A stretch of DNA of 64,000 nucleotides from Krischvirus LF73P4. Below are positions 6,138-36,057 of this stretch, one piece after another. Made by a program: the position numbers and the translations under genes. The notes below the pieces were generated by a model. That model saw only the letters and a program-made list of their open reading frames with translations. It was not told the origin of the DNA and did not search any database. Location: the sequence record OZ035795.1; one strand, 5' to 3'. The stretch's first letter is position 1; each line of letters begins with the position of its first letter.

Positions 6138-7112
6138 ATGCTGAGTGTTAATGAAAATGAGTTTCAGTGGGAACAGAAATACCGTCCGAAATCAATTTCT
6201 GAATGTATTCTGCCGGAAGCAGATAAAAAGATCTTCGCGCAGATTGTTAAGCAAGGCCGAATCCCTTCTATGATCCTGCATAGCCCATCGCCGGGTACTG
6301 GTAAAACAACCGTTGCTAAGGCGCTTTGCGAAGATGTGGGTGTTGATTATCTGTTTGTTAACGGCGCAGATTGTAAGATTGATTTTATCCGCGATGAGAT
6401 TACACGCTTTGCGCAGAGTGTATCACTCGATGAAGAAAAACGAGAAAAAGGCAAAGTTGTTATTATCGATGAGTATGACCGAGCGGGGTTGGCTGACGCT
6501 CAAAGACACTTGCGTAGTTTCTCTGAGGCATACTCAAACAACGTGACATTCATTATCACAGCAAACGATCTAGAAGGTATTATCCCAGCGTTACGATCTC
6601 GATTTGATCCCATCACGTTTGGATCTCCGACTAAAGATGATCAGCTTCGCATGATGAAAGAAATGATCGTCCGGTGTAAAGCAATTCTTGATAAAGAAGG
6701 TGTGCCAGTAGAAGAAATGCGCGTATTAGCGGAACTGGTTAAACAGAACTTCCCAGACTTCCGACGCGTAATGAAACTTTTGGACCGCTACGCTAAACAT
6801 GGTAAAATTGATGCTGGCGTATTGAGCATGGTTATCGAAAGTAGCAATACCGAAGTAACCGATGTGGTGGAAGCACTTAAAACTAAACAGTTTGCTAATG
6901 TGCGTAAACTTGCACCGCGATATACCAATACATACGCTCAATTTGTCAAGAAACTTTATAATGAGTTGTATACTCAAGTTAAGCCAGCTTCTATTATTCG
7001 TCTGACCGAGATTATCGGTGAAAATAATCAGATGTTTGCGCACGCGGCTGATAAAGAGATTCACATTGTCTTTTTGTTAATGCAATTAATGGTTGAATTG
7101 GAGTTCGTATAA
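6138..7112 (+). CDS. 44: clamp loader large subunit gp44 (AAA+ ATPase)
   Basis: Walker A SPGTGKTT; GAGAGG RBS before ATG 6138; synteny 45-44-62. Confidence 0.9.
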   Translation: MLSVNENEFQWEQKYRPKSISECILPEADKKIFAQIVKQGRIPSMILHSPSPGTGKTTVAKALCEDVGVDYLFVNGADCKIDFIRDEITRFAQSVSLDEEKREKGKVVIIDEYDRAGLADAQRHLRSFSEAYSNNVTFIITANDLEGIIPALRSRFDPITFGSPTKDDQLRMMKEMIVRCKAILDKEGVPVEEMRVLAELVKQNFPDFRRVMKLLDRYAKHGKIDAGVLSMVIESSNTEVTDVVEALKTKQFANVRKLAPRYTNTYAQFVKKLYNELYTQVKPASIIRLTEIIGENNQMFAHAADKEIHIVFLLMQLMVELEFV

Positions 7113-7690
7113 TGTTAGGTCAATTTTTCGGTGAAGATGATACACAATTAAACGAGCATGAAATTGCATGGCGCTCTCGTGATTGGGAAAAGGTGTCTGA
7201 ATTAGCTGACACATTCACCGAGAAAACCGACAATGCATTATTTGCTCTGATGGATCATATCACCTTAGATAAACAGCGCGTTAATGTTGGGAACAATTCT
7301 GCATATAACCAGAGATGGATTAATACCGCTCTTTCCCAGCACGCAGATTGCCTATATAGCGCGTATGTGATGAATTTAATCGGTCATGGCCTCCCAGATC
7401 AAATGCATTTTGATTATCTCTTACAGAGTATTTCTAAGGGGAAACGATACGGTAAATGGGCTAAACTAACAGAAGAATTGGACCAAAAATTGGTTTTAAT
7501 GGCAGTGGCGAAAGCATATTGTGTAAATATGGATGACGCCCGGTTTTATCTCGATTTGGCTAATGAAAAGGGATATATGGACAAGTTATTGAAGCACATT
7601 AAACCGTATGCGACCGATGAACTTTTGGCGGGTGTTACTAAGAATCAGACAGAAAGGAAACGACTTAAAAAGATTATAGAAAGGTGGTAA
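7112..7690 (+). CDS. 62: clamp loader small subunit gp62
   Basis: 192 aa, TAATG overlap with gp44, position between 44 and regA. Confidence 0.7.
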   Translation: MLGQFFGEDDTQLNEHEIAWRSRDWEKVSELADTFTEKTDNALFALMDHITLDKQRVNVGNNSAYNQRWINTALSQHADCLYSAYVMNLIGHGLPDQMHFDYLLQSISKGKRYGKWAKLTEELDQKLVLMAVAKAYCVNMDDARFYLDLANEKGYMDKLLKHIKPYATDELLAGVTKNQTERKRLKKIIERW

Positions 7691-24783: not shown

Positions 24784-25041
24784 ATGAGTCGAAGTTTTGA
24801 TTTTCTGATCGCCAAGTGTCATCGAGAAAAGAAATCGATGGACCTGTTTATGAAATGTTTGAGGTATGAATATGCACACCTTCGTAAACACAAAATTGAT
24901 CCGCAAGTTTCCTACGAAAACATCAAGAAATATGCGAAAGAAGTGATTGACAACGATTGCACCGTGACATATAATGCGTTTATTGATTTATGGGCGTGGG
25001 ATGTAATCTACGCAGAGATGGACAAAGAAGATTTTAATTAA
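24784..25041 (+). CDS. hypothetical protein
   Basis: 85-aa ORF. Confidence 0.45.
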   Translation: MSRSFDFLIAKCHREKKSMDLFMKCLRYEYAHLRKHKIDPQVSYENIKKYAKEVIDNDCTVTYNAFIDLWAWDVIYAEMDKEDFN

Positions 25042-25055
25042 GTGAGGATTATATT

Positions 25056-27164
25056 ATGAAAATGCATATCGATAATGAAGAAGTATTTGGCAGTGACCTG
25101 AGCGGTGCGGTTGATTTTTCACTGAAAGCAAGTAGCAAGGCTTTTATGGTGCTTTCTAAGAACACTTATCAATATTGTGAGCGTGCTTGCGTCCGTGAGT
25201 ATTCGTGCAATGCTACCGACACTCACAAAGAAGCCGGAACCTTAGATCGTCCGTTTGATATTCATTTACCGACTGCAATCGAACCGTATTTTTCTGTGCG
25301 TGATTATGGTACGGGTATTCCGTCTAAGAAAGAATTAGAACAACTGTTTACGGTTTACTTTGAATCAACAAAAGACCAGACTAATGATTATATCGGATCT
25401 TTTGGTTTAGGTGCGAAGTCTGCTTATAGCTATACTGACACCTTTACAATCGTAAACTACTACAATGGTCGCGCTTATGGCTTTACTGCATTTGTGCAAA
25501 ACTCTATGCCGAAAATGGTGCAGATTTTCGACGAACCGACCTATGAAGACAACGGTCTGAAAATCACTATTCCGGTGAAAGAAAAAGACATTCAGACATG
25601 GCATCGAGAAGCACAATTTGTACTTCGTCATTTTGGGGAACACAAACCTAATATCAATGCAATCGAAATTAATTATTTCCCTAGCTTTGATAATTATTAT
25701 GTTTGCAATGGGCGTGATAACGATTCCTATGTAGTATATGCAATCATGGGTAAGATCCAGTATCCGATCCCGTATGAATATGTTCGCGGAACATGGTTAG
25801 AAGCTGTAAACCGCCAGCACCAGACCATTTACATTAATTTTGATTTGGGTGATCTGGACCTGATGCCATCGCGCGAAGAAGTTCACTTGTCAATCGAGAC
25901 TAAAGCGAACATCGAAAAACGTATTGCAGAAATCAATGAAATGATGTTGGAAAAGGTTAAAGAAAAGATCGCCAACATTAAAACAGAGCGTAAACTTGCG
26001 CAATTTATGAGCGAGTATTCATCGACTCAACGCAATATTATTAGCAAGATGGGTAAGATCGGGCAGTGGGATGATCCGGTAGCAATCTATAATAAGTTTG
26101 TGAATGCGGGTAAAGATTCGCCTAGTGACGTAGAAGGTCAGGTGTATACTCTGTATCGTACTCGTCACACAATCAGTAAATTGCGCCCTGCTTTCGTTAG
26201 CAGTCAATACAACATTACGCATTTTGTATGGATGCATAAAGAAGATATTCTGTGTGTAATTGATGATACCGATAAACCGAAACTGCGTGCACTGACTCTT
26301 AACGGCATGGTCCAGGAATACGGAATCAATAAAAAGGTACTGGTGTTCCGTCAGCGCAACGAAAAACATATGGAGACTTTCGAGTACATCAAACAGTATT
26401 ATGATGAATCTGAAATGACCGTGATTAAGGTATCAGAGGCCGATGATCTGCGTGCTAAAGCAGTTAAACCGGAAAAGACCGAGCGTACACAACGTGAAGC
26501 GACTCCCAAGCTGCCTAACGTGTATATCATGGAAAAGATTGGTGACAGTTGGCATAAAACCAGCCATCACATGAAAGCGGCAGAGATTCGCGAGTTATCA
26601 GGCTTGCACATGTTCCGCGTAGGTGATGCATTCGAAAGCCGTAGTCGTAAATCGATCTATAGTGAAAATACATTACACACGGCGCTTGACTACTTCGGGG
26701 TAACAAAGTATATTATTACTCGAAACGAGACACAAAAATATCTCGTTGACGAACAATTGGAATGTGCGCTAGAATTTGTTCGCGGTAAGCTGGCTGGTCT
26801 GGCTAAGAAGGTTAAGACCAATCATCTGGGGTATGGCGAATATCTGGGTGTGATCACTATGTTGTTTCATGACGATGAACTAGAACGCTGTGTTCCAGAA
26901 TTTATTGACAGACTGTACGGTCGTCATTATAATAAAGAGGTTTCCAAGTTACTCCTTCGTACTCGTTGGATTATGGACGAAGAAACTAAAAAGATCTGTG
27001 ATGAAAAATTCACGGCAGCAAACGAACGAATTAAAGCAGTTTGTGCGAAGTTTAAAGAGAATAGCCCGTTACTGTATGATATTGTAGATAACTGGTATCG
27101 TATTCTGCATAACGACAAACGCGCACAAGACTTTATGAAACTGGTTAAGAATGTTAAATTTTAA
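25056..27164 (+). CDS. rIIA: rIIA lysis-inhibition/membrane integrity protein
   Basis: 702 aa; GHKL-like boxes (REYSCNATD, RDYGTGI, GSFGLGAKSA); adjacent to rIIB. Confidence 0.8.
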   Translation: MKMHIDNEEVFGSDLSGAVDFSLKASSKAFMVLSKNTYQYCERACVREYSCNATDTHKEAGTLDRPFDIHLPTAIEPYFSVRDYGTGIPSKKELEQLFTVYFESTKDQTNDYIGSFGLGAKSAYSYTDTFTIVNYYNGRAYGFTAFVQNSMPKMVQIFDEPTYEDNGLKITIPVKEKDIQTWHREAQFVLRHFGEHKPNINAIEINYFPSFDNYYVCNGRDNDSYVVYAIMGKIQYPIPYEYVRGTWLEAVNRQHQTIYINFDLGDLDLMPSREEVHLSIETKANIEKRIAEINEMMLEKVKEKIANIKTERKLAQFMSEYSSTQRNIISKMGKIGQWDDPVAIYNKFVNAGKDSPSDVEGQVYTLYRTRHTISKLRPAFVSSQYNITHFVWMHKEDILCVIDDTDKPKLRALTLNGMVQEYGINKKVLVFRQRNEKHMETFEYIKQYYDESEMTVIKVSEADDLRAKAVKPEKTERTQREATPKLPNVYIMEKIGDSWHKTSHHMKAAEIRELSGLHMFRVGDAFESRSRKSIYSENTLHTALDYFGVTKYIITRNETQKYLVDEQLECALEFVRGKLAGLAKKVKTNHLGYGEYLGVITMLFHDDELERCVPEFIDRLYGRHYNKEVSKLLLRTRWIMDEETKKICDEKFTAANERIKAVCAKFKENSPLLYDIVDNWYRILHNDKRAQDFMKLVKNVKF

Positions 27165-27175
27165 GAGGTGATATT

Positions 27176-27307
27176 ATGACTAAACTGACCGCTATCCAGA
27201 AAGAAACCATCCGTAAACAATACGCTCGCGGCTTGACTAAAGGCGAACTGGCACGAATCTATAATGTATCAGACCGCACAATCCGCAAGGTTGTAGAAGC
27301 AAAATAA
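27176..27307 (+). CDS. small helix-turn-helix protein (43 aa), resembles an rIIB N-terminal module
   Basis: AAGAGGTGA RBS; GLTKGELARIYNVSDRTIRKVV HTH-like segment. Confidence 0.45.
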   Translation: MTKLTAIQKETIRKQYARGLTKGELARIYNVSDRTIRKVVEAK

Positions 27308-27319
27308 TTCTGGTATAAT
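27291..27319 (+). promoter_or_regulatory. promoter candidate with extended -10 (TGgTATAAT) and weak -35 TTGTAG
   Basis: -10 at 27314-27319; GGGCG/CGCCC hairpin 27330-27347 in the leader. Confidence 0.4.
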
Positions 27320-27369
27320 GATGTGAATCGGGCGGCGATAGTCGCCCAACTAATAGAGGAATGAATACT

Positions 27370-28362
27370 ATGACTAAAGCAAAAATCACCGTCTCTGACC
27401 GTAACGTTCAATGCCTGGATTCTGCGAAACAAATCAAACTGGCTAAACAGTGGGGCGAAGGTAAGTTTACTACCCGCGAAGCACTTGCGGCAGCATTTGG
27501 TGTATCTCGTCGCACTGCCTCCCGTGTATTACTGATTCAGAAAGACGCAGTAGCGGAAGGTCGCAAGGCACTAGAAAAACGTAAAGCACGCCGTAAAACC
27601 AGTAAAGGAAAAGGCGGTGAACGCGCAAAAAAGCCCGTGACTACTTCCTCAAAAATCGTAGCCATAGCCTCAACTAAGTTTATTACTATTACATGTGGTG
27701 ACATTGTTTATACTGCTGATCCATCACATGTTAACTTTAATGAAGCACTGGAAGCGATTAAACATAATGATTTCATCAAAGCTATTACGCTGATTGACAT
27801 TAAGAAAGCGGTTGAAGTATATTATCACGGCGCTTTCCGTATCGAAAATGGTATTGTGTATTATCATAATATTGTTCTTGATAATAATCTGACTCGTCGA
27901 GTTGTGGAGTCGATTAAAGAGAATAAGCCATATACGCACTATCTGAACTTCTTTGAGAAGTGCAAGAAAAACCCTAGCCGTAAGGCCGTAGATCGTCTAT
28001 TTGACTTCTTAGAGCACAACGACATTGAGATCGTGGAAGATGGTTGTTTCTATGCATGGAAACGTGTTGATGTTGATTATAAAGATTTCTTTACGCATAC
28101 GTTTGATAATAGCCCAGGTCGCACGGTTAAAATGAAGCGTAAAGACGTGGACCCAGATGATGATCGCACTTGCTCTAATGGCCTCCACGTTGCAGCGAAA
28201 CACTATATTCCGCACTATGGCGGTGGACGAGGCCGAATCATTAAATGTAAAGTTGATCCGCGTCACGTTGTAAGTATCCCGAAAGATTATGCGAATGCCA
28301 AAATGCGCTGTCATCGTTACTATGTGGTTGAAGATGTAACCGAAGGTTTTAGCCATTACTAA
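27370..28362 (+). CDS. rIIB: rIIB protein
   Basis: 330 aa from ATG 27370; conserved C-terminal core matching T4 rIIB as recalled (KAVDRLFDFL...YVVEDVTEGF). Confidence 0.85.
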   Translation: MTKAKITVSDRNVQCLDSAKQIKLAKQWGEGKFTTREALAAAFGVSRRTASRVLLIQKDAVAEGRKALEKRKARRKTSKGKGGERAKKPVTTSSKIVAIASTKFITITCGDIVYTADPSHVNFNEALEAIKHNDFIKAITLIDIKKAVEVYYHGAFRIENGIVYYHNIVLDNNLTRRVVESIKENKPYTHYLNFFEKCKKNPSRKAVDRLFDFLEHNDIEIVEDGCFYAWKRVDVDYKDFFTHTFDNSPGRTVKMKRKDVDPDDDRTCSNGLHVAAKHYIPHYGGGRGRIIKCKVDPRHVVSIPKDYANAKMRCHRYYVVEDVTEGFSHY

Positions 28363-28376
28363 CAGAGGAATTAATT

Positions 28377-28703
28377 ATGGTTGATATGAAAGTTACTTGC
28401 GAAAGTGCACATGTTGAAGTTGAAAGTAGCCAATATTCATTGCGTCCGTCCGGTCGTGTTACTGTGACTATGGATGATGTTGATTTGGTTAATAATGTTA
28501 GTGTTGAAGATATCGTTAATGAGTATGATCATAGCGAACTGCTAGACGCAATTCCTGAACATGTTGTTATCCAGCACGTAGTAAGCAATAATGATCCATC
28601 GACTTTCATTAAAGAATATGGCGCTGATGAAATGCTCGATGAAATTGGCGAAAAGATTGTTATTGCATGGCTTGAAAACAACGGTTATACTGTAGAACAA
28701 TAA
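28377..28703 (+). CDS. highly acidic small protein (candidate DNA mimic)
   Basis: 108 aa with 23 D/E versus 5 K/R by my count. Confidence 0.5.
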   Translation: MVDMKVTCESAHVEVESSQYSLRPSGRVTVTMDDVDLVNNVSVEDIVNEYDHSELLDAIPEHVVIQHVVSNNDPSTFIKEYGADEMLDEIGEKIVIAWLENNGYTVEQ

Positions 28704-28710
28704 TCAACAT

Positions 28711-28734
28711 AGGCCGCTTTGCGCGGCCTTTCTT
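28711..28734 (+). terminator. rho-independent terminator
   Basis: AGGCCGC-tttgc-GCGGCCT hairpin followed by TTCTT. Confidence 0.5.
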
Positions 28735-28748
28735 AGAGGGAATACATT

Positions 28749-29042
28749 ATGACAGTCACGGTTATTACCAAATACGACGACGAAAATGTGATTTACGGTG
28801 ATGTGGTTGTTGTTCACGGTCGTAGCATGAAAGTTACTGGCAATTGTAAAGATGGTGCTATTATTTGCGGTGAATTGGTGAGAACAGTCAATCCTATCAC
28901 CGACGAACAAAAGCGAGTCATTATCAGAAAACTTAAAGACAGTGGATATTGTAACGTCGTGGTGATTCAAGAAAAAATTGAAGTAGGCCAATTATACACA
29001 AATCAGAAAACAATTCCGGTATCAATGGTTAAAGGCGGTTAA
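28749..29042 (+). CDS. hypothetical protein
   Basis: 97-aa ORF. Confidence 0.45.
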   Translation: MTVTVITKYDDENVIYGDVVVVHGRSMKVTGNCKDGAIICGELVRTVNPITDEQKRVIIRKLKDSGYCNVVVIQEKIEVGQLYTNQKTIPVSMVKGG

Positions 29043-29044
29043 TA

Positions 29045-29407
29045 ATGCTAGGTCATTCTAAAATAGAAGATTGCTCATTCAGAGCAATGAAAGATGATTT
29101 TTCGGTCCTGTACGCGTCTATCCGAGAGTTGTTTGTAGATTTTAAGCAATTCAGAGAATACAAAGGAGTTAAGATGCGGGAGTGGGTATTCTGGCCTTTC
29201 TATATCATTACTCTGTTTTCTATGGTATTTTGTTTTGTCGGGATCACTATCGCTAGTTTTGTCACTTGCGTTTTCCTGATTATCAGGTGTATCATGTTTG
29301 CTTTGATTGCTGCCCCGTTTATTGTGTCAATCCTTCCGTTAAAATGGCTATTGGATTGGGCTGATAAATCTGATAAAGTAAAGAATGTGATTTGTAAGCG
29401 TGTATGA
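29045..29407 (+). CDS. hypothetical membrane protein
   Basis: 120 aa with long hydrophobic segments. Confidence 0.5.
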   Translation: MLGHSKIEDCSFRAMKDDFSVLYASIRELFVDFKQFREYKGVKMREWVFWPFYIITLFSMVFCFVGITIASFVTCVFLIIRCIMFALIAAPFIVSILPLKWLLDWADKSDKVKNVICKRV

Positions 29408-29414
29408 GGTGAAG

Positions 29415-30761
29415 ATGAATAAATCAGTTACTTACCGCAGCCTTGAAAGCATTGTACATAATGAAGCTAAGGAATATGCGATCTATTCTGCCGAGGAACG
29501 CGGGATTCCTCAATTAGTAGATGGGCTTAAACCAGTGCAACGCTTTGTTATGGAATGTGCTTTGCAAAAGAGTAAAGGCGACCGTAAGAAATTCCGTAAG
29601 ATGGCAGATATTGGATCTGGTGTTGCTGAGTTGGGTTATCACCACGGGGAAACTAATGCCGTAGAAGCCGGATCACTCATGGCGAATACATGGAGCAATA
29701 ATACTCCACTGCTTGACGGTCAAGGTAACTTCGGATCTCGTTTAGTCCAGAAAGCAGGTGCAGCACGTTATATCTTTGCTCGTGTGCATGAAAACTTCTT
29801 TAAAATCTATAAAGATATGAATTGCGCACCTAAGCACGAAGATCTGGAACACATCCCGCCAGCGTTCTACTTGCCAGTTGTGCCAATGGTATTGGCTAAT
29901 GGTATTAGTGGTATTGCTACAGGGTATAAAACTGACATTTTACCGCATTCACTGGAAAGCCTCATTGAATGCACAGAGCTAGCACTTGCCGGAAAACTGG
30001 ATAAAGAACCTAGTGTTCAATTCCCGAAATTCACGGGTAAAGTTATCCCGCGAGATGATCGCGATGGTGTGATTCTTGAGGGTACATATGAACTAAACGG
30101 CAAGACTAAACTGACAATATCAGAAGTTCCTTATAAGTTCGACCGTGAAGAATATGTAGCGGTACTGGATGCACTGGAAGAAAAAGATCTGATTGTATCG
30201 TATAATGACCGTTGCTCTAAGGACGGATTCAGATTTGAAGTAACACTGAAACGCGATTATTTCAAAAGCGAAGATGAATCCGCTCGACATGAGCAAATCA
30301 TGAAGGATTTTAAACTAACGCAGTTAGTAGCCCAGAATATCGTAGTGGTTAATGAACGTGGTTTAGTAGAAGTATTCGAGAAAGCGAGCGATCTGATCCG
30401 TCGATTCGTCGAAATCCGATTAGGGTATGTTGATAAACGCATTGAATTGATGCAAGCGGAAACGCTGGAAGCATACAATTATGCAATGGCTAAAGCCGAA
30501 TTTATCGATCGCGTAATTAAGGGCGAAATCGAGCTACAGGGCAAGAAAAAGGCCGAGGTAATGCAATCCATCAATGGACATGAAAAACTGCGTCCATACG
30601 CCGATAAGCTAGTTTCTATGCCATTGTATAGCGTTACTCAAGAAGAGTATGATCGACTGGTCAAAGATGCCAATAAACATCATAGTGAATATGAGTATTG
30701 GACAAAGACGACAGCAATGAAGGAATATAAGAAAGATCTTAAAGAACTTAAGAAGGGTTGA
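29415..30761 (+). CDS. 52: DNA topoisomerase II medium subunit gp52 (GyrA-like)
   Basis: 448 aa from ATG 29415; conserved blocks (GLKPVQRF, GYHHGE, LLDGQGNFGSR) as in T4 gp52. Confidence 0.9.
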   Translation: MNKSVTYRSLESIVHNEAKEYAIYSAEERGIPQLVDGLKPVQRFVMECALQKSKGDRKKFRKMADIGSGVAELGYHHGETNAVEAGSLMANTWSNNTPLLDGQGNFGSRLVQKAGAARYIFARVHENFFKIYKDMNCAPKHEDLEHIPPAFYLPVVPMVLANGISGIATGYKTDILPHSLESLIECTELALAGKLDKEPSVQFPKFTGKVIPRDDRDGVILEGTYELNGKTKLTISEVPYKFDREEYVAVLDALEEKDLIVSYNDRCSKDGFRFEVTLKRDYFKSEDESARHEQIMKDFKLTQLVAQNIVVVNERGLVEVFEKASDLIRRFVEIRLGYVDKRIELMQAETLEAYNYAMAKAEFIDRVIKGEIELQGKKKAEVMQSINGHEKLRPYADKLVSMPLYSVTQEEYDRLVKDANKHHSEYEYWTKTTAMKEYKKDLKELKKG

Positions 30762-35488: not shown

Positions 35489-35812
35489 ATGATCGAGTTT
35501 GAAATTGACAACTTTCACGAAAAAGCAGAAGACTTAACCAAAATTTTGATTAGTCGAGGTGCATATAATACGAAAGATATTATAAAAGAAGTTAATGTAG
35601 CGATGGACGCGATCCAAAAGGAATTTAAACATATTTCAGCGATTGGAGAAAATGGTCATCTTGAAGATGTTGAGCTGGTAGCACTGCGACGCTATTACTT
35701 CTTTGTTGATTGCATCATTGATCTAGCTAAAAATTATAGTCATTACATGAAAGATATTGTAAACGATGCACGTAAGTTGGCAGAGAATGTTTACGGGAAG
35801 TTTCCAGAATGA
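35489..35812 (+). CDS. hypothetical protein (paralog of 35042-35374)
   Basis: 107 aa; GAGG upstream of ATG 35489. Confidence 0.5.
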   Translation: MIEFEIDNFHEKAEDLTKILISRGAYNTKDIIKEVNVAMDAIQKEFKHISAIGENGHLEDVELVALRRYYFFVDCIIDLAKNYSHYMKDIVNDARKLAENVYGKFPE

Positions 35813-36057
35813 AATTAGAACAAGCGATTGTATACTTTGAGATGGGCTATGATATTGCTCGTGTAGAGTGGGAAGATGGTGATTTTGTCCGATTGATTGA
35901 TCTTCCAGAAACAGCTATTGCACTGGTCAAAGTAGAAAACGGCATACAACGAAATTACGCGTTTTCTGACGAAGACAAACAAGCCGATGACTGGTACGCT
36001 ACATGTTTTCATCATACAGCGTCAAAATGCGATTCAGGCGCGTCTATGCGTCAATAA
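35809..36057 (+). CDS. hypothetical protein
   Basis: 82-aa ORF. Confidence 0.45.
   Translation: MKLEQAIVYFEMGYDIARVEWEDGDFVRLIDLPETAIALVKVENGIQRNYAFSDEDKQADDWYATCFHHTASKCDSGASMRQ

Follow-up and report, generated by a model that had tools for sequence, protein, structure and literature searches.

Phage proteins that counter host defenses by mimicking DNA often have a broad spectrum, and they often set off back-up immunity; Ocr and Gam, for instance, trigger PARIS or retron Ec48. T7 Ocr (gp0.3), an all-alpha, banana-shaped dimer of about 110 amino acids per chain with a pI of about 4, is a DNA-mimic inhibitor of type I R-M and BREX whose gene is early, transcribed by host RNA polymerase, and a single-gene accessory function. 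T4 Arn, a small, acidic, early protein encoded downstream of motA, is a DNA-mimic inhibitor of McrBC and carries 16 Asp/Glu and 7 Lys/Arg residues (net charge, -9) in 92 amino acids. In lambda, the early-left stretch that runs from N to the recombination genes is the classic region for host-modulating and counter-defense accessory genes, and ral sits in its N-to-cIII accessory region; Ral itself is a basic protein, rich in Cys, that acts through the stimulation of methylation. The EVADES collection lists 11 DNA-mimic anti-defense proteins, and about a dozen are catalogued overall.

Within the 64,000-nucleotide (nt) stretch of Krischvirus LF73P4 that was analyzed (sequence record OZ035795.1, hereafter "the window"), an ATG-initiated gene on the plus strand (28377..28703, stop codon included) encodes an acidic protein of 108 amino acids, designated ORF108, which is the ortholog of RB49ORF270c and matches phrog_14049. 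A first-pass annotation, which proposed that this product is a DNA-mimic anti-restriction factor, had counted 23 Asp/Glu against 5 Lys/Arg residues, and a recount of the translation returned exactly these values. The protein has a pI of 4.09, a net charge of -18, 4 His residues, and an Asp/Glu content of 21%, a composition high in Asp/Glu and low in pI, as in DNA mimics. Among the 133 open reading frames of at least 60 amino acids in the window, ORF108 ranks first in net negative charge per residue (0.167; the next highest is 0.10). The bulk of this charge resides in the predicted helical two-thirds of the protein (residues 34 to 108; 18 Asp/Glu and 2 Lys/Arg), and residues 1 to 33 are nearly neutral to mildly acidic (5 Asp/Glu and 3 Lys/Arg).

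The gene follows rIIA (25056-27164, +), a 43-amino-acid helix-turn-helix frame (ORF43; 27176-27307, +), and rIIB (27361..28362, +; 333 amino acids; phrog_609 RIIB, E = 3e-106), with 14 nt separating the rIIB stop codon from the ORF108 start. A Shine-Dalgarno sequence read from this interval (AGAGGA, 28364..28369, +) ends 7 nt before the ATG, and a ribosome binding site is annotated at the matching site in phage Makalu_003. The placement of ORF108 between rIIB and gene 52 in the first-pass annotation is correct as to position, but two more frames intervene before gene 52 (topoisomerase II medium subunit; 29400-30761, +), namely a 97-amino-acid frame (28749-29042, +) and a 120-amino-acid predicted membrane protein of phrog_16033 (ORF120; 29045-29407, +). 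ORF120 is kept in a divergent Krischvirus-like contig (L010, 1215-1586), its last 8 nt overlap gene 52 when the latter is read from its longest possible start, a GTG, and the location of ORF120 corresponds to that of the small membrane proteins Ac and 52.1 of T4. ORF43 is a bare helix-turn-helix (CENP-B_N, E = 7e-6; sigma-70 region 4, E = 2e-4) with a weak likeness to the N-terminal helix-turn-helix of rIIB (31% identity over 39 amino acids, E = 0.016; phrog_609 positions 756-795), and it may be a duplicated or split-off N-terminal module of rIIB.

A perfect sigma-70 consensus promoter (TTGACA-17-TATAAT; 26905..26933, +) lies within the 3' end of rIIA and, judging by its position, likely drives an early unit comprising ORF43, rIIB, and ORF108; another perfect TTGACA-17-TATAAT promoter precedes rIIA at 24947 (+). 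The whole window contains seven perfect TTGACA-N16-18-TATAAT sites, where chance would give 0.09; the plus strand has six (8076, 10805, 23964, 24947, 26905, and 53372) and the minus strand one (62580), and these consensus matches probably mark the early transcription units of the phage. Because perfect sigma-70 promoters occur upstream on the same strand, early expression of ORF108 by host RNA polymerase is plausible. The terminator that the first-pass annotation assigned to the end of the gene is borne out in part: a GC-rich hairpin (AGGCCGC-TTTGC-GCGGCCT followed by TTCTTA, 28711..28735, +; stem-loop, 28711-28729) has a 7-bp stem with six GC pairs and a centroid energy of -13.6 kcal/mol (z = -2.4 versus shuffled sequences), but the U tract that follows it is weak (UUUCUU), and a scan for consensus terminators lists the hairpin on the minus strand only. 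Annotations of phages G2494 (ARNOLD, -13.5) and Makalu_003 mark the equivalent hairpin as a putative terminator. It is best described as a putative intrinsic terminator, probably partial, or as an RNA-stabilizing hairpin.

The source phage is a Krischvirus, an RB49-like "pseudo-T-even" T4-type coliphage: positions 27300-29500 of the window are 99.8% identical to Escherichia phage vB-Eco-KMB43 and 98 to 99% identical to RB49, Phi1, JSE, and other Krischvirus members. Orthologs of ORF108 are present in 58 of 58 Krischvirus genomes at 86 to 100% identity and are labeled "hypothetical protein" in all 58 records. For well-diverged pairs among five Krischvirus orthologs, dN/dS ranges from 0.10 to 0.16 (Nei-Gojobori method) at dS values of 0.47 to 0.58. 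Residues 55 to 108 are almost invariant among the five, with RB49 alone differing, at two positions, and most differences within the genus map to the loop that joins the two strands of the hairpin predicted at the N terminus. ORF108 is a real gene under purifying selection. One 48-kb Logan contig (P0007) carries a variant of the Krischvirus gene in which a frameshift replaces the last ~30 residues; this variant is a pseudogene, or else it stems from an assembly error.

The family to which ORF108 belongs was previously unstudied and has no characterized member. The phrog_14049 profile matches ORF108 over its full length (residues 1 to 108 of a 108-position profile, E = 5.2e-66) and phrog_7311 matches it weakly (E = 4.5e-7); both profiles are without functional annotation, so that membership says nothing about mechanism. 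A word-indexed search retrieved only the copies from Krischvirus, and when 1.84 billion representatives were searched exhaustively with a HMMER profile, just 10 matches reached E <= 0.001. A repetitive Thr/Ser-rich surface protein of 1156 amino acids (P0015) that the exhaustive search also brought up is a spurious match. Two more profile searches enlarged the family to about 90 sequences. None of these has a Pfam domain, and all those named by a source are called "hypothetical"; a literature search for RB49ORF270c, its accession, and the sequence motifs of the family found no mention of them.

Family members occur in two length classes. The short form is mostly 70 to 80 amino acids and is found in Yersinia, Serratia, Citrobacter, Cronobacter, E. 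coli, Enterobacter, Lelliottia, Pantoea, and Izhakiella, with a weak match in Vibrio; the form from Yersinia matches phrog_14049 (E = 2.4e-13) and, weakly, phrog_7311 (E = 2.2e-4). The long form (103 to 108 amino acids) is found in Krischvirus and two contigs, the divergent Krischvirus-like L010 (82% DNA identity) and the 135-kb L007, which is ~70% identical to Phapecoctavirus-type phages. In family alignments, the long form corresponds to the short form plus a 31-residue insert, and this stretch of about 31 residues that the short form lacks contains an acidic helical repeat (repeat 1, residues 47 to 71, VNEYDHSELLDAIPEHVVIQHVVSN; 28515..28589, +) that aligns with a second one (repeat 2, residues 78 to 102, IKEYGADEMLDEIGEKIVIAWLENN; 28608..28682, +). 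The self-alignment score of the two repeats is 48, compared with 21.2 +/- 4.0 in 500 shuffles, none of which (0/500) reaches it. Repeat 2 is the most conserved part of the family, with the motif LLDEIGExxVIxWLExxGYTV. By this alignment evidence, the long form is the product of a tandem duplication of the acidic helical motif.

Acidity is conserved across the family while the sequence drifts. Net charge lies between -9 and -20 in 37 of the 37 aligned members, and charge per residue is held between -0.14 and -0.19 in the 14 short forms that are nonredundant at 70% identity and whose median pairwise identity is 41%. In ORF108, the conserved acidic residues include E49, D57, E85, D88, E89, E92, and E100.

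AlphaFold2 gave an unusable model of ORF108 from a 7-sequence alignment (pLDDT 44) and a weak one from a 37-sequence alignment (pLDDT 69, pTM 0.29). The latter consists of an N-terminal beta-hairpin (strands at residues 10 to 17 and 26 to 33, within residues 1 to 33; 28377..28475, +) followed by six short helices, the hairpin loop being the part that varies within Krischvirus. In four of five predicted helices, acidic residues lie 130 to 166 degrees off the hydrophobic face, which suggests that the helices are amphipathic with exposed carboxylates. A fold search with this weak model found no match. An EF-hand or dockerin-like Ca-binding loop was considered for DDVDLVNNVSVED and rejected by eye, its spacing misfitting the canonical 1-3-5-12 pattern.

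ORF108 resembles the known mimics in composition and genomic setting only. It is like T7 Ocr in its size, pI, and accessory single-gene character and in its plausible early transcription by host RNA polymerase; in contrast to the all-alpha Ocr dimer, it is predicted, from the weak model, to combine a beta-hairpin with short helices, and the two share no sequence similarity that is detectable with Pfam or, up to E = 10, among PDB chains. T4 Arn is encoded in the same broad early arm of a T4-type genome, but its gene does not occupy the rIIB-gene 52 interval, and the protein is less acidic than ORF108. Searches with BLASTP and hmmsearch against Arn and 11 other small T4 proteins of the rIIB-asiA arm produced no E value better than 0.085, and homology to Arn or to another protein of that arm was rejected. 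The lambda stretch that contains ral and gam also holds, in prophages, short-form homologs of ORF108; there is no homology between these and Ral or Gam, and no Ral Pfam match was found in the N-to-cIII region of the prophage loci examined.

Wider searches agree with these comparisons. Pfam contains no family that matches ORF108 at E <= 1 and, for the 37 family members, no Ocr, Gam/GamL, or other family at E <= 5 beyond chance; NCBIfam gave only scattered chance matches for ORF108 and the 37 members, and such matches in the family libraries are exemplified by Chlamy_scaf (E = 0.07). No PADLOC anti-phage defense profile matches ORF108 at E <= 1, and the 37 members likewise yield nothing beyond chance. 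When two family profiles were compared with all PDB sequences, none of the mimics (Ocr, ArdA, Arn, Gam, Ugi, or others) came up at E values as high as 10, and the best matches, bacterioferritin (E = 0.024) and ASF1/Lsm5 (E of about 0.5 to 1), were judged to be due to chance. Membership in the ArdA or ArdB-KlcA families, whose genes lie in the leading regions of plasmids or ICEs, was rejected on the same grounds (no Pfam, NCBIfam, or PDB match) and on the lack of plasmid homologs: a set of 72,556 plasmids searched by tblastn with one short-form protein gave none. The idea that the family replaces Gam in prophages that lack it, as the sole RecBCD inhibitor beside the recombination genes, was also discarded, GamL co-occurring with a family member at one locus (L017); a 97-amino-acid frame at the Gam position in other prophage loci has no Pfam match.

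The short form was placed in context at 15 prophage loci (given as L003-L006 and L011-L020). All 15 belong to lambdoid or Rac-like prophages of the Enterobacterales that carry the short form in the early-left operon, downstream of cI or N and upstream of a recombination module (ERF/SSB, Rad52, Bet/YqaJ, or RecE/RecT), and the neighbors of the short form include cIII, kilR, Nmad5, and small genes without known function. IMG/VR adds 36 further loci, 2 from Krischvirus and 34 from others, many of them on contigs of prophage size (40 to 50 kb). In L010, the long form is again directly upstream of the ORF120 homolog and gene 52; there it follows DUF5499, and no rIIB is called on the 0.9 kb of contig upstream. 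When regions of +/-7 kb from T4-type, Phapecoctavirus-like, and lambdoid loci were compared all versus all in six frames, the acidic protein was the only shared product, bar one unrelated pair. This pattern indicates that the family travels as an autonomous one-gene cassette among three unrelated phage lineages, virulent T4-type, Phapecoctavirus-like, and temperate lambdoid, and that, as far as gene order reveals, its place in each is an early operon. Since no other neighbor is common to the lineages, the partner of the protein is argued to be a host component and not a phage protein.

Two features of the Yersinia prophages may be recorded here. An identical 72-amino-acid short form occurs in two lambdoid prophages of one Yersinia chromosome (CP139925.1; L004 at 3.58 Mb and L005 at 2.33 Mb), which differ in their recombination modules (ERF/SSB and Rad52). 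The short form in Yersinia prophages is usually followed, after a gap of ~80 nt, by a phrog_1376 protein of 317 to 339 amino acids with no Pfam domain (L004, 8300-9253; L005, 8301-9254; L006, 8300-9274; L013, 6304-7278; L015, 6307-7260). At L014 the phrog_1376 gene (6518-7537) is one gene further on, with a 67-amino-acid gene intervening, and L003 is without it, as are the T4-type and the Serratia and E. coli contexts. The phrog_1376 protein could be a lineage-specific functional partner.

Published phenotypes bear on what such a gene could do in Krischvirus. Most phages of the genus, including TB34 and RB49, have canonical cytosines and no hmC pathway or hmC synthase (PMC13390438), and protein-based counter-defense would be useful to them for this reason; by the same token, their mostly unmodified DNA makes McrBC no obvious threat. 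Two Krischvirus phages that are 99.96% identical, TB34 and SAP, differ in that the former has canonical C and the latter glucosylated methyl-dC, with no modification pathway identified (PMC13390438). TB34 holds a 98.1%-identical copy of ORF108. It is nonetheless restricted 10- to 100-fold by the type I BREX system of Salmonella and ~10^4-fold more strongly by a delta-brxL variant of that system, and T7 Ocr or Sp6 Gp5 supplied in trans fully restores its plating (PMC11341690). An EPEC island in which DarTG2 lies embedded in a type I R-M system restricts TB34 ~10^4-fold, as it does lambda-vir, the contributions of the two systems not being separated (PMC12255303). Because a phage that carries an ORF108 copy is sensitive to BREX until Ocr is supplied, an Ocr-like role against BREX is disfavored: the BREX results argue that the native ORF108-type gene gives no such protection, and type I BREX is an unlikely target, as is a general Ocr-like spectrum. 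The island results are at best neutral for type I R-M. Given that both BREX and the R-M/DarTG2 island restrict TB34, any anti-defense target of ORF108 would lie elsewhere.

A further candidate counter-defense gene occurs on the same strand of the window. An acidic, 82-amino-acid Tad2-like frame (35809-36057, +) scores 27.9 bits in Pfam against a gathering cutoff of 25 (E = 3.4e-6) and is 49% identical to a Tad2-like frame in L010. On this profile match it is a probable anti-Thoeris gene, and it belongs to the same early block, ~7 kb downstream of ORF108.

The reading that we favor, tentatively and at somewhat less than even confidence, is that ORF108 is an early accessory decoy or sequestering inhibitor that binds a conserved host protein of the Enterobacterales through its acidic face, with BREX an unlikely target. 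The protein would probably fold into a small structure in which an N-terminal beta-hairpin is joined to duplicated short amphipathic helices that expose Asp and Glu, and it would most likely act stoichiometrically. With its conserved negative surface it would bind, and so block, a host protein that is common to the Enterobacterales, positively charged, and probably a binder of nucleic acid, and this decoy activity or sequestration may serve host takeover or counter-defense. We infer both that a host protein is bound and that the acidic surface is the interface. The conserved extreme acidity, the early position of the gene, the three-lineage cassette, and the Tad2-like gene in the same block all fit a decoy or anti-defense role. 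Weighing against the decoy reading, acidity unrelated to mimicry is widespread among small early phage proteins, and no homolog was found among the 72,556 plasmids, where ArdA-type anti-restriction genes are common. That the family constitutes a structurally unprecedented class of nucleic-acid-mimic decoy, carried as a one-gene cassette, tuned in length by duplication, and directed against a non-BREX host DNA-binding defense or nucleoid protein, is unlikely on present evidence.

Several other accounts of ORF108 can be set against decoy or sequestering inhibition. It is possible, if doubtful, that the protein binds, with no nucleic-acid mimicry, a host factor such as a protease, a protein of the membrane or of division, or one with a metabolic or regulatory function, its acidity serving solubility or a specific interface. 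The arguments from distribution and autonomy apply equally to such a binder, the lambdoid early-left region also contains host modulators that are not mimics (e.g., kil and cIII), and the predicted fold is unlike that of any known mimic; yet net negative charge is conserved at positions that vary, as one would sooner expect if selection acts on a charged surface than if it acts on one specific interface, and the tandem duplication of an acidic helix in the long form looks like the extension of such a surface. The original proposal, by which ORF108 is an Ocr/ArdA/Arn-type mimic that occupies the DNA-binding groove of type I R-M, BREX, or type IV enzymes, is favored by its pI of 4.09, its 21% Asp/Glu, and an acidity exceeding that of T4 Arn, by the early gene and the usually unmodified Krischvirus DNA, and by the occurrence of prophage copies in the N-to-cIII region, where lambda ral sits. 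We consider it improbable, however, in view of the failure of PDB searches up to E = 10 to show sequence or profile likeness to any chain of Ocr, ArdA, Arn, or Gam, the lack of a match to T4 Arn, of a fold match, and of plasmid homologs, and the behavior of TB34, which despite its 98.1%-identical copy is restricted by BREX and rescued by Ocr or Gp5 in trans (PMC11341690) and is restricted ~10^4-fold by the type I R-M plus DarTG2 island (PMC12255303).

A role internal to the phage, in which ORF108 serves a basic phage protein, such as rIIB or a product of the downstream genes, as chaperone, assembly factor, or regulator, would accord with the basic, Lys/Arg-rich linker of rIIB, with the tight coupling of the two genes (14-nt gap) and the lack of a promoter of its own for ORF108, and with the phrog_1376 protein that nearly always follows the Yersinia prophage copies. 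We give this account little credence, seeing that the lambdoid and Phapecoctavirus-like contexts have no rIIB and the T4-type ones no phrog_1376, that no neighbor is common across lineages, and that L010 is without rIIB on the 0.9 kb upstream. Finally, the absence of a known domain and the one frameshifted natural variant (P0007) might be taken to mean that ORF108 is functionless, either a fortuitous reading frame or a decaying hitchhiker, which is very improbable: a dN/dS of 0.10 to 0.16, a good ribosome binding site, presence in 58 of 58 Krischvirus genomes, and recognizable homologs in distant phages all oppose it, and the signature of selection effectively refutes it.

ORF108 defines a new uncharacterized family of a familiar sort, the small, acidic, early accessory proteins of phages. 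It is a reasonable and cheap candidate for an anti-defense screen and not a discovery, and nothing about it would surprise a specialist; the spread over three lineages and the variation in length through duplication are mildly interesting. That spread takes in three unrelated phage lineages and many prophages of Yersinia, Serratia, Citrobacter, Cronobacter, and E. coli. Should ORF108 neutralize a host protein that binds DNA, the short list of mimics would gain both a fold and a target that are new to it, and the family would then also help to explain how Krischvirus phages cope with host defenses despite their mostly unmodified cytosines.
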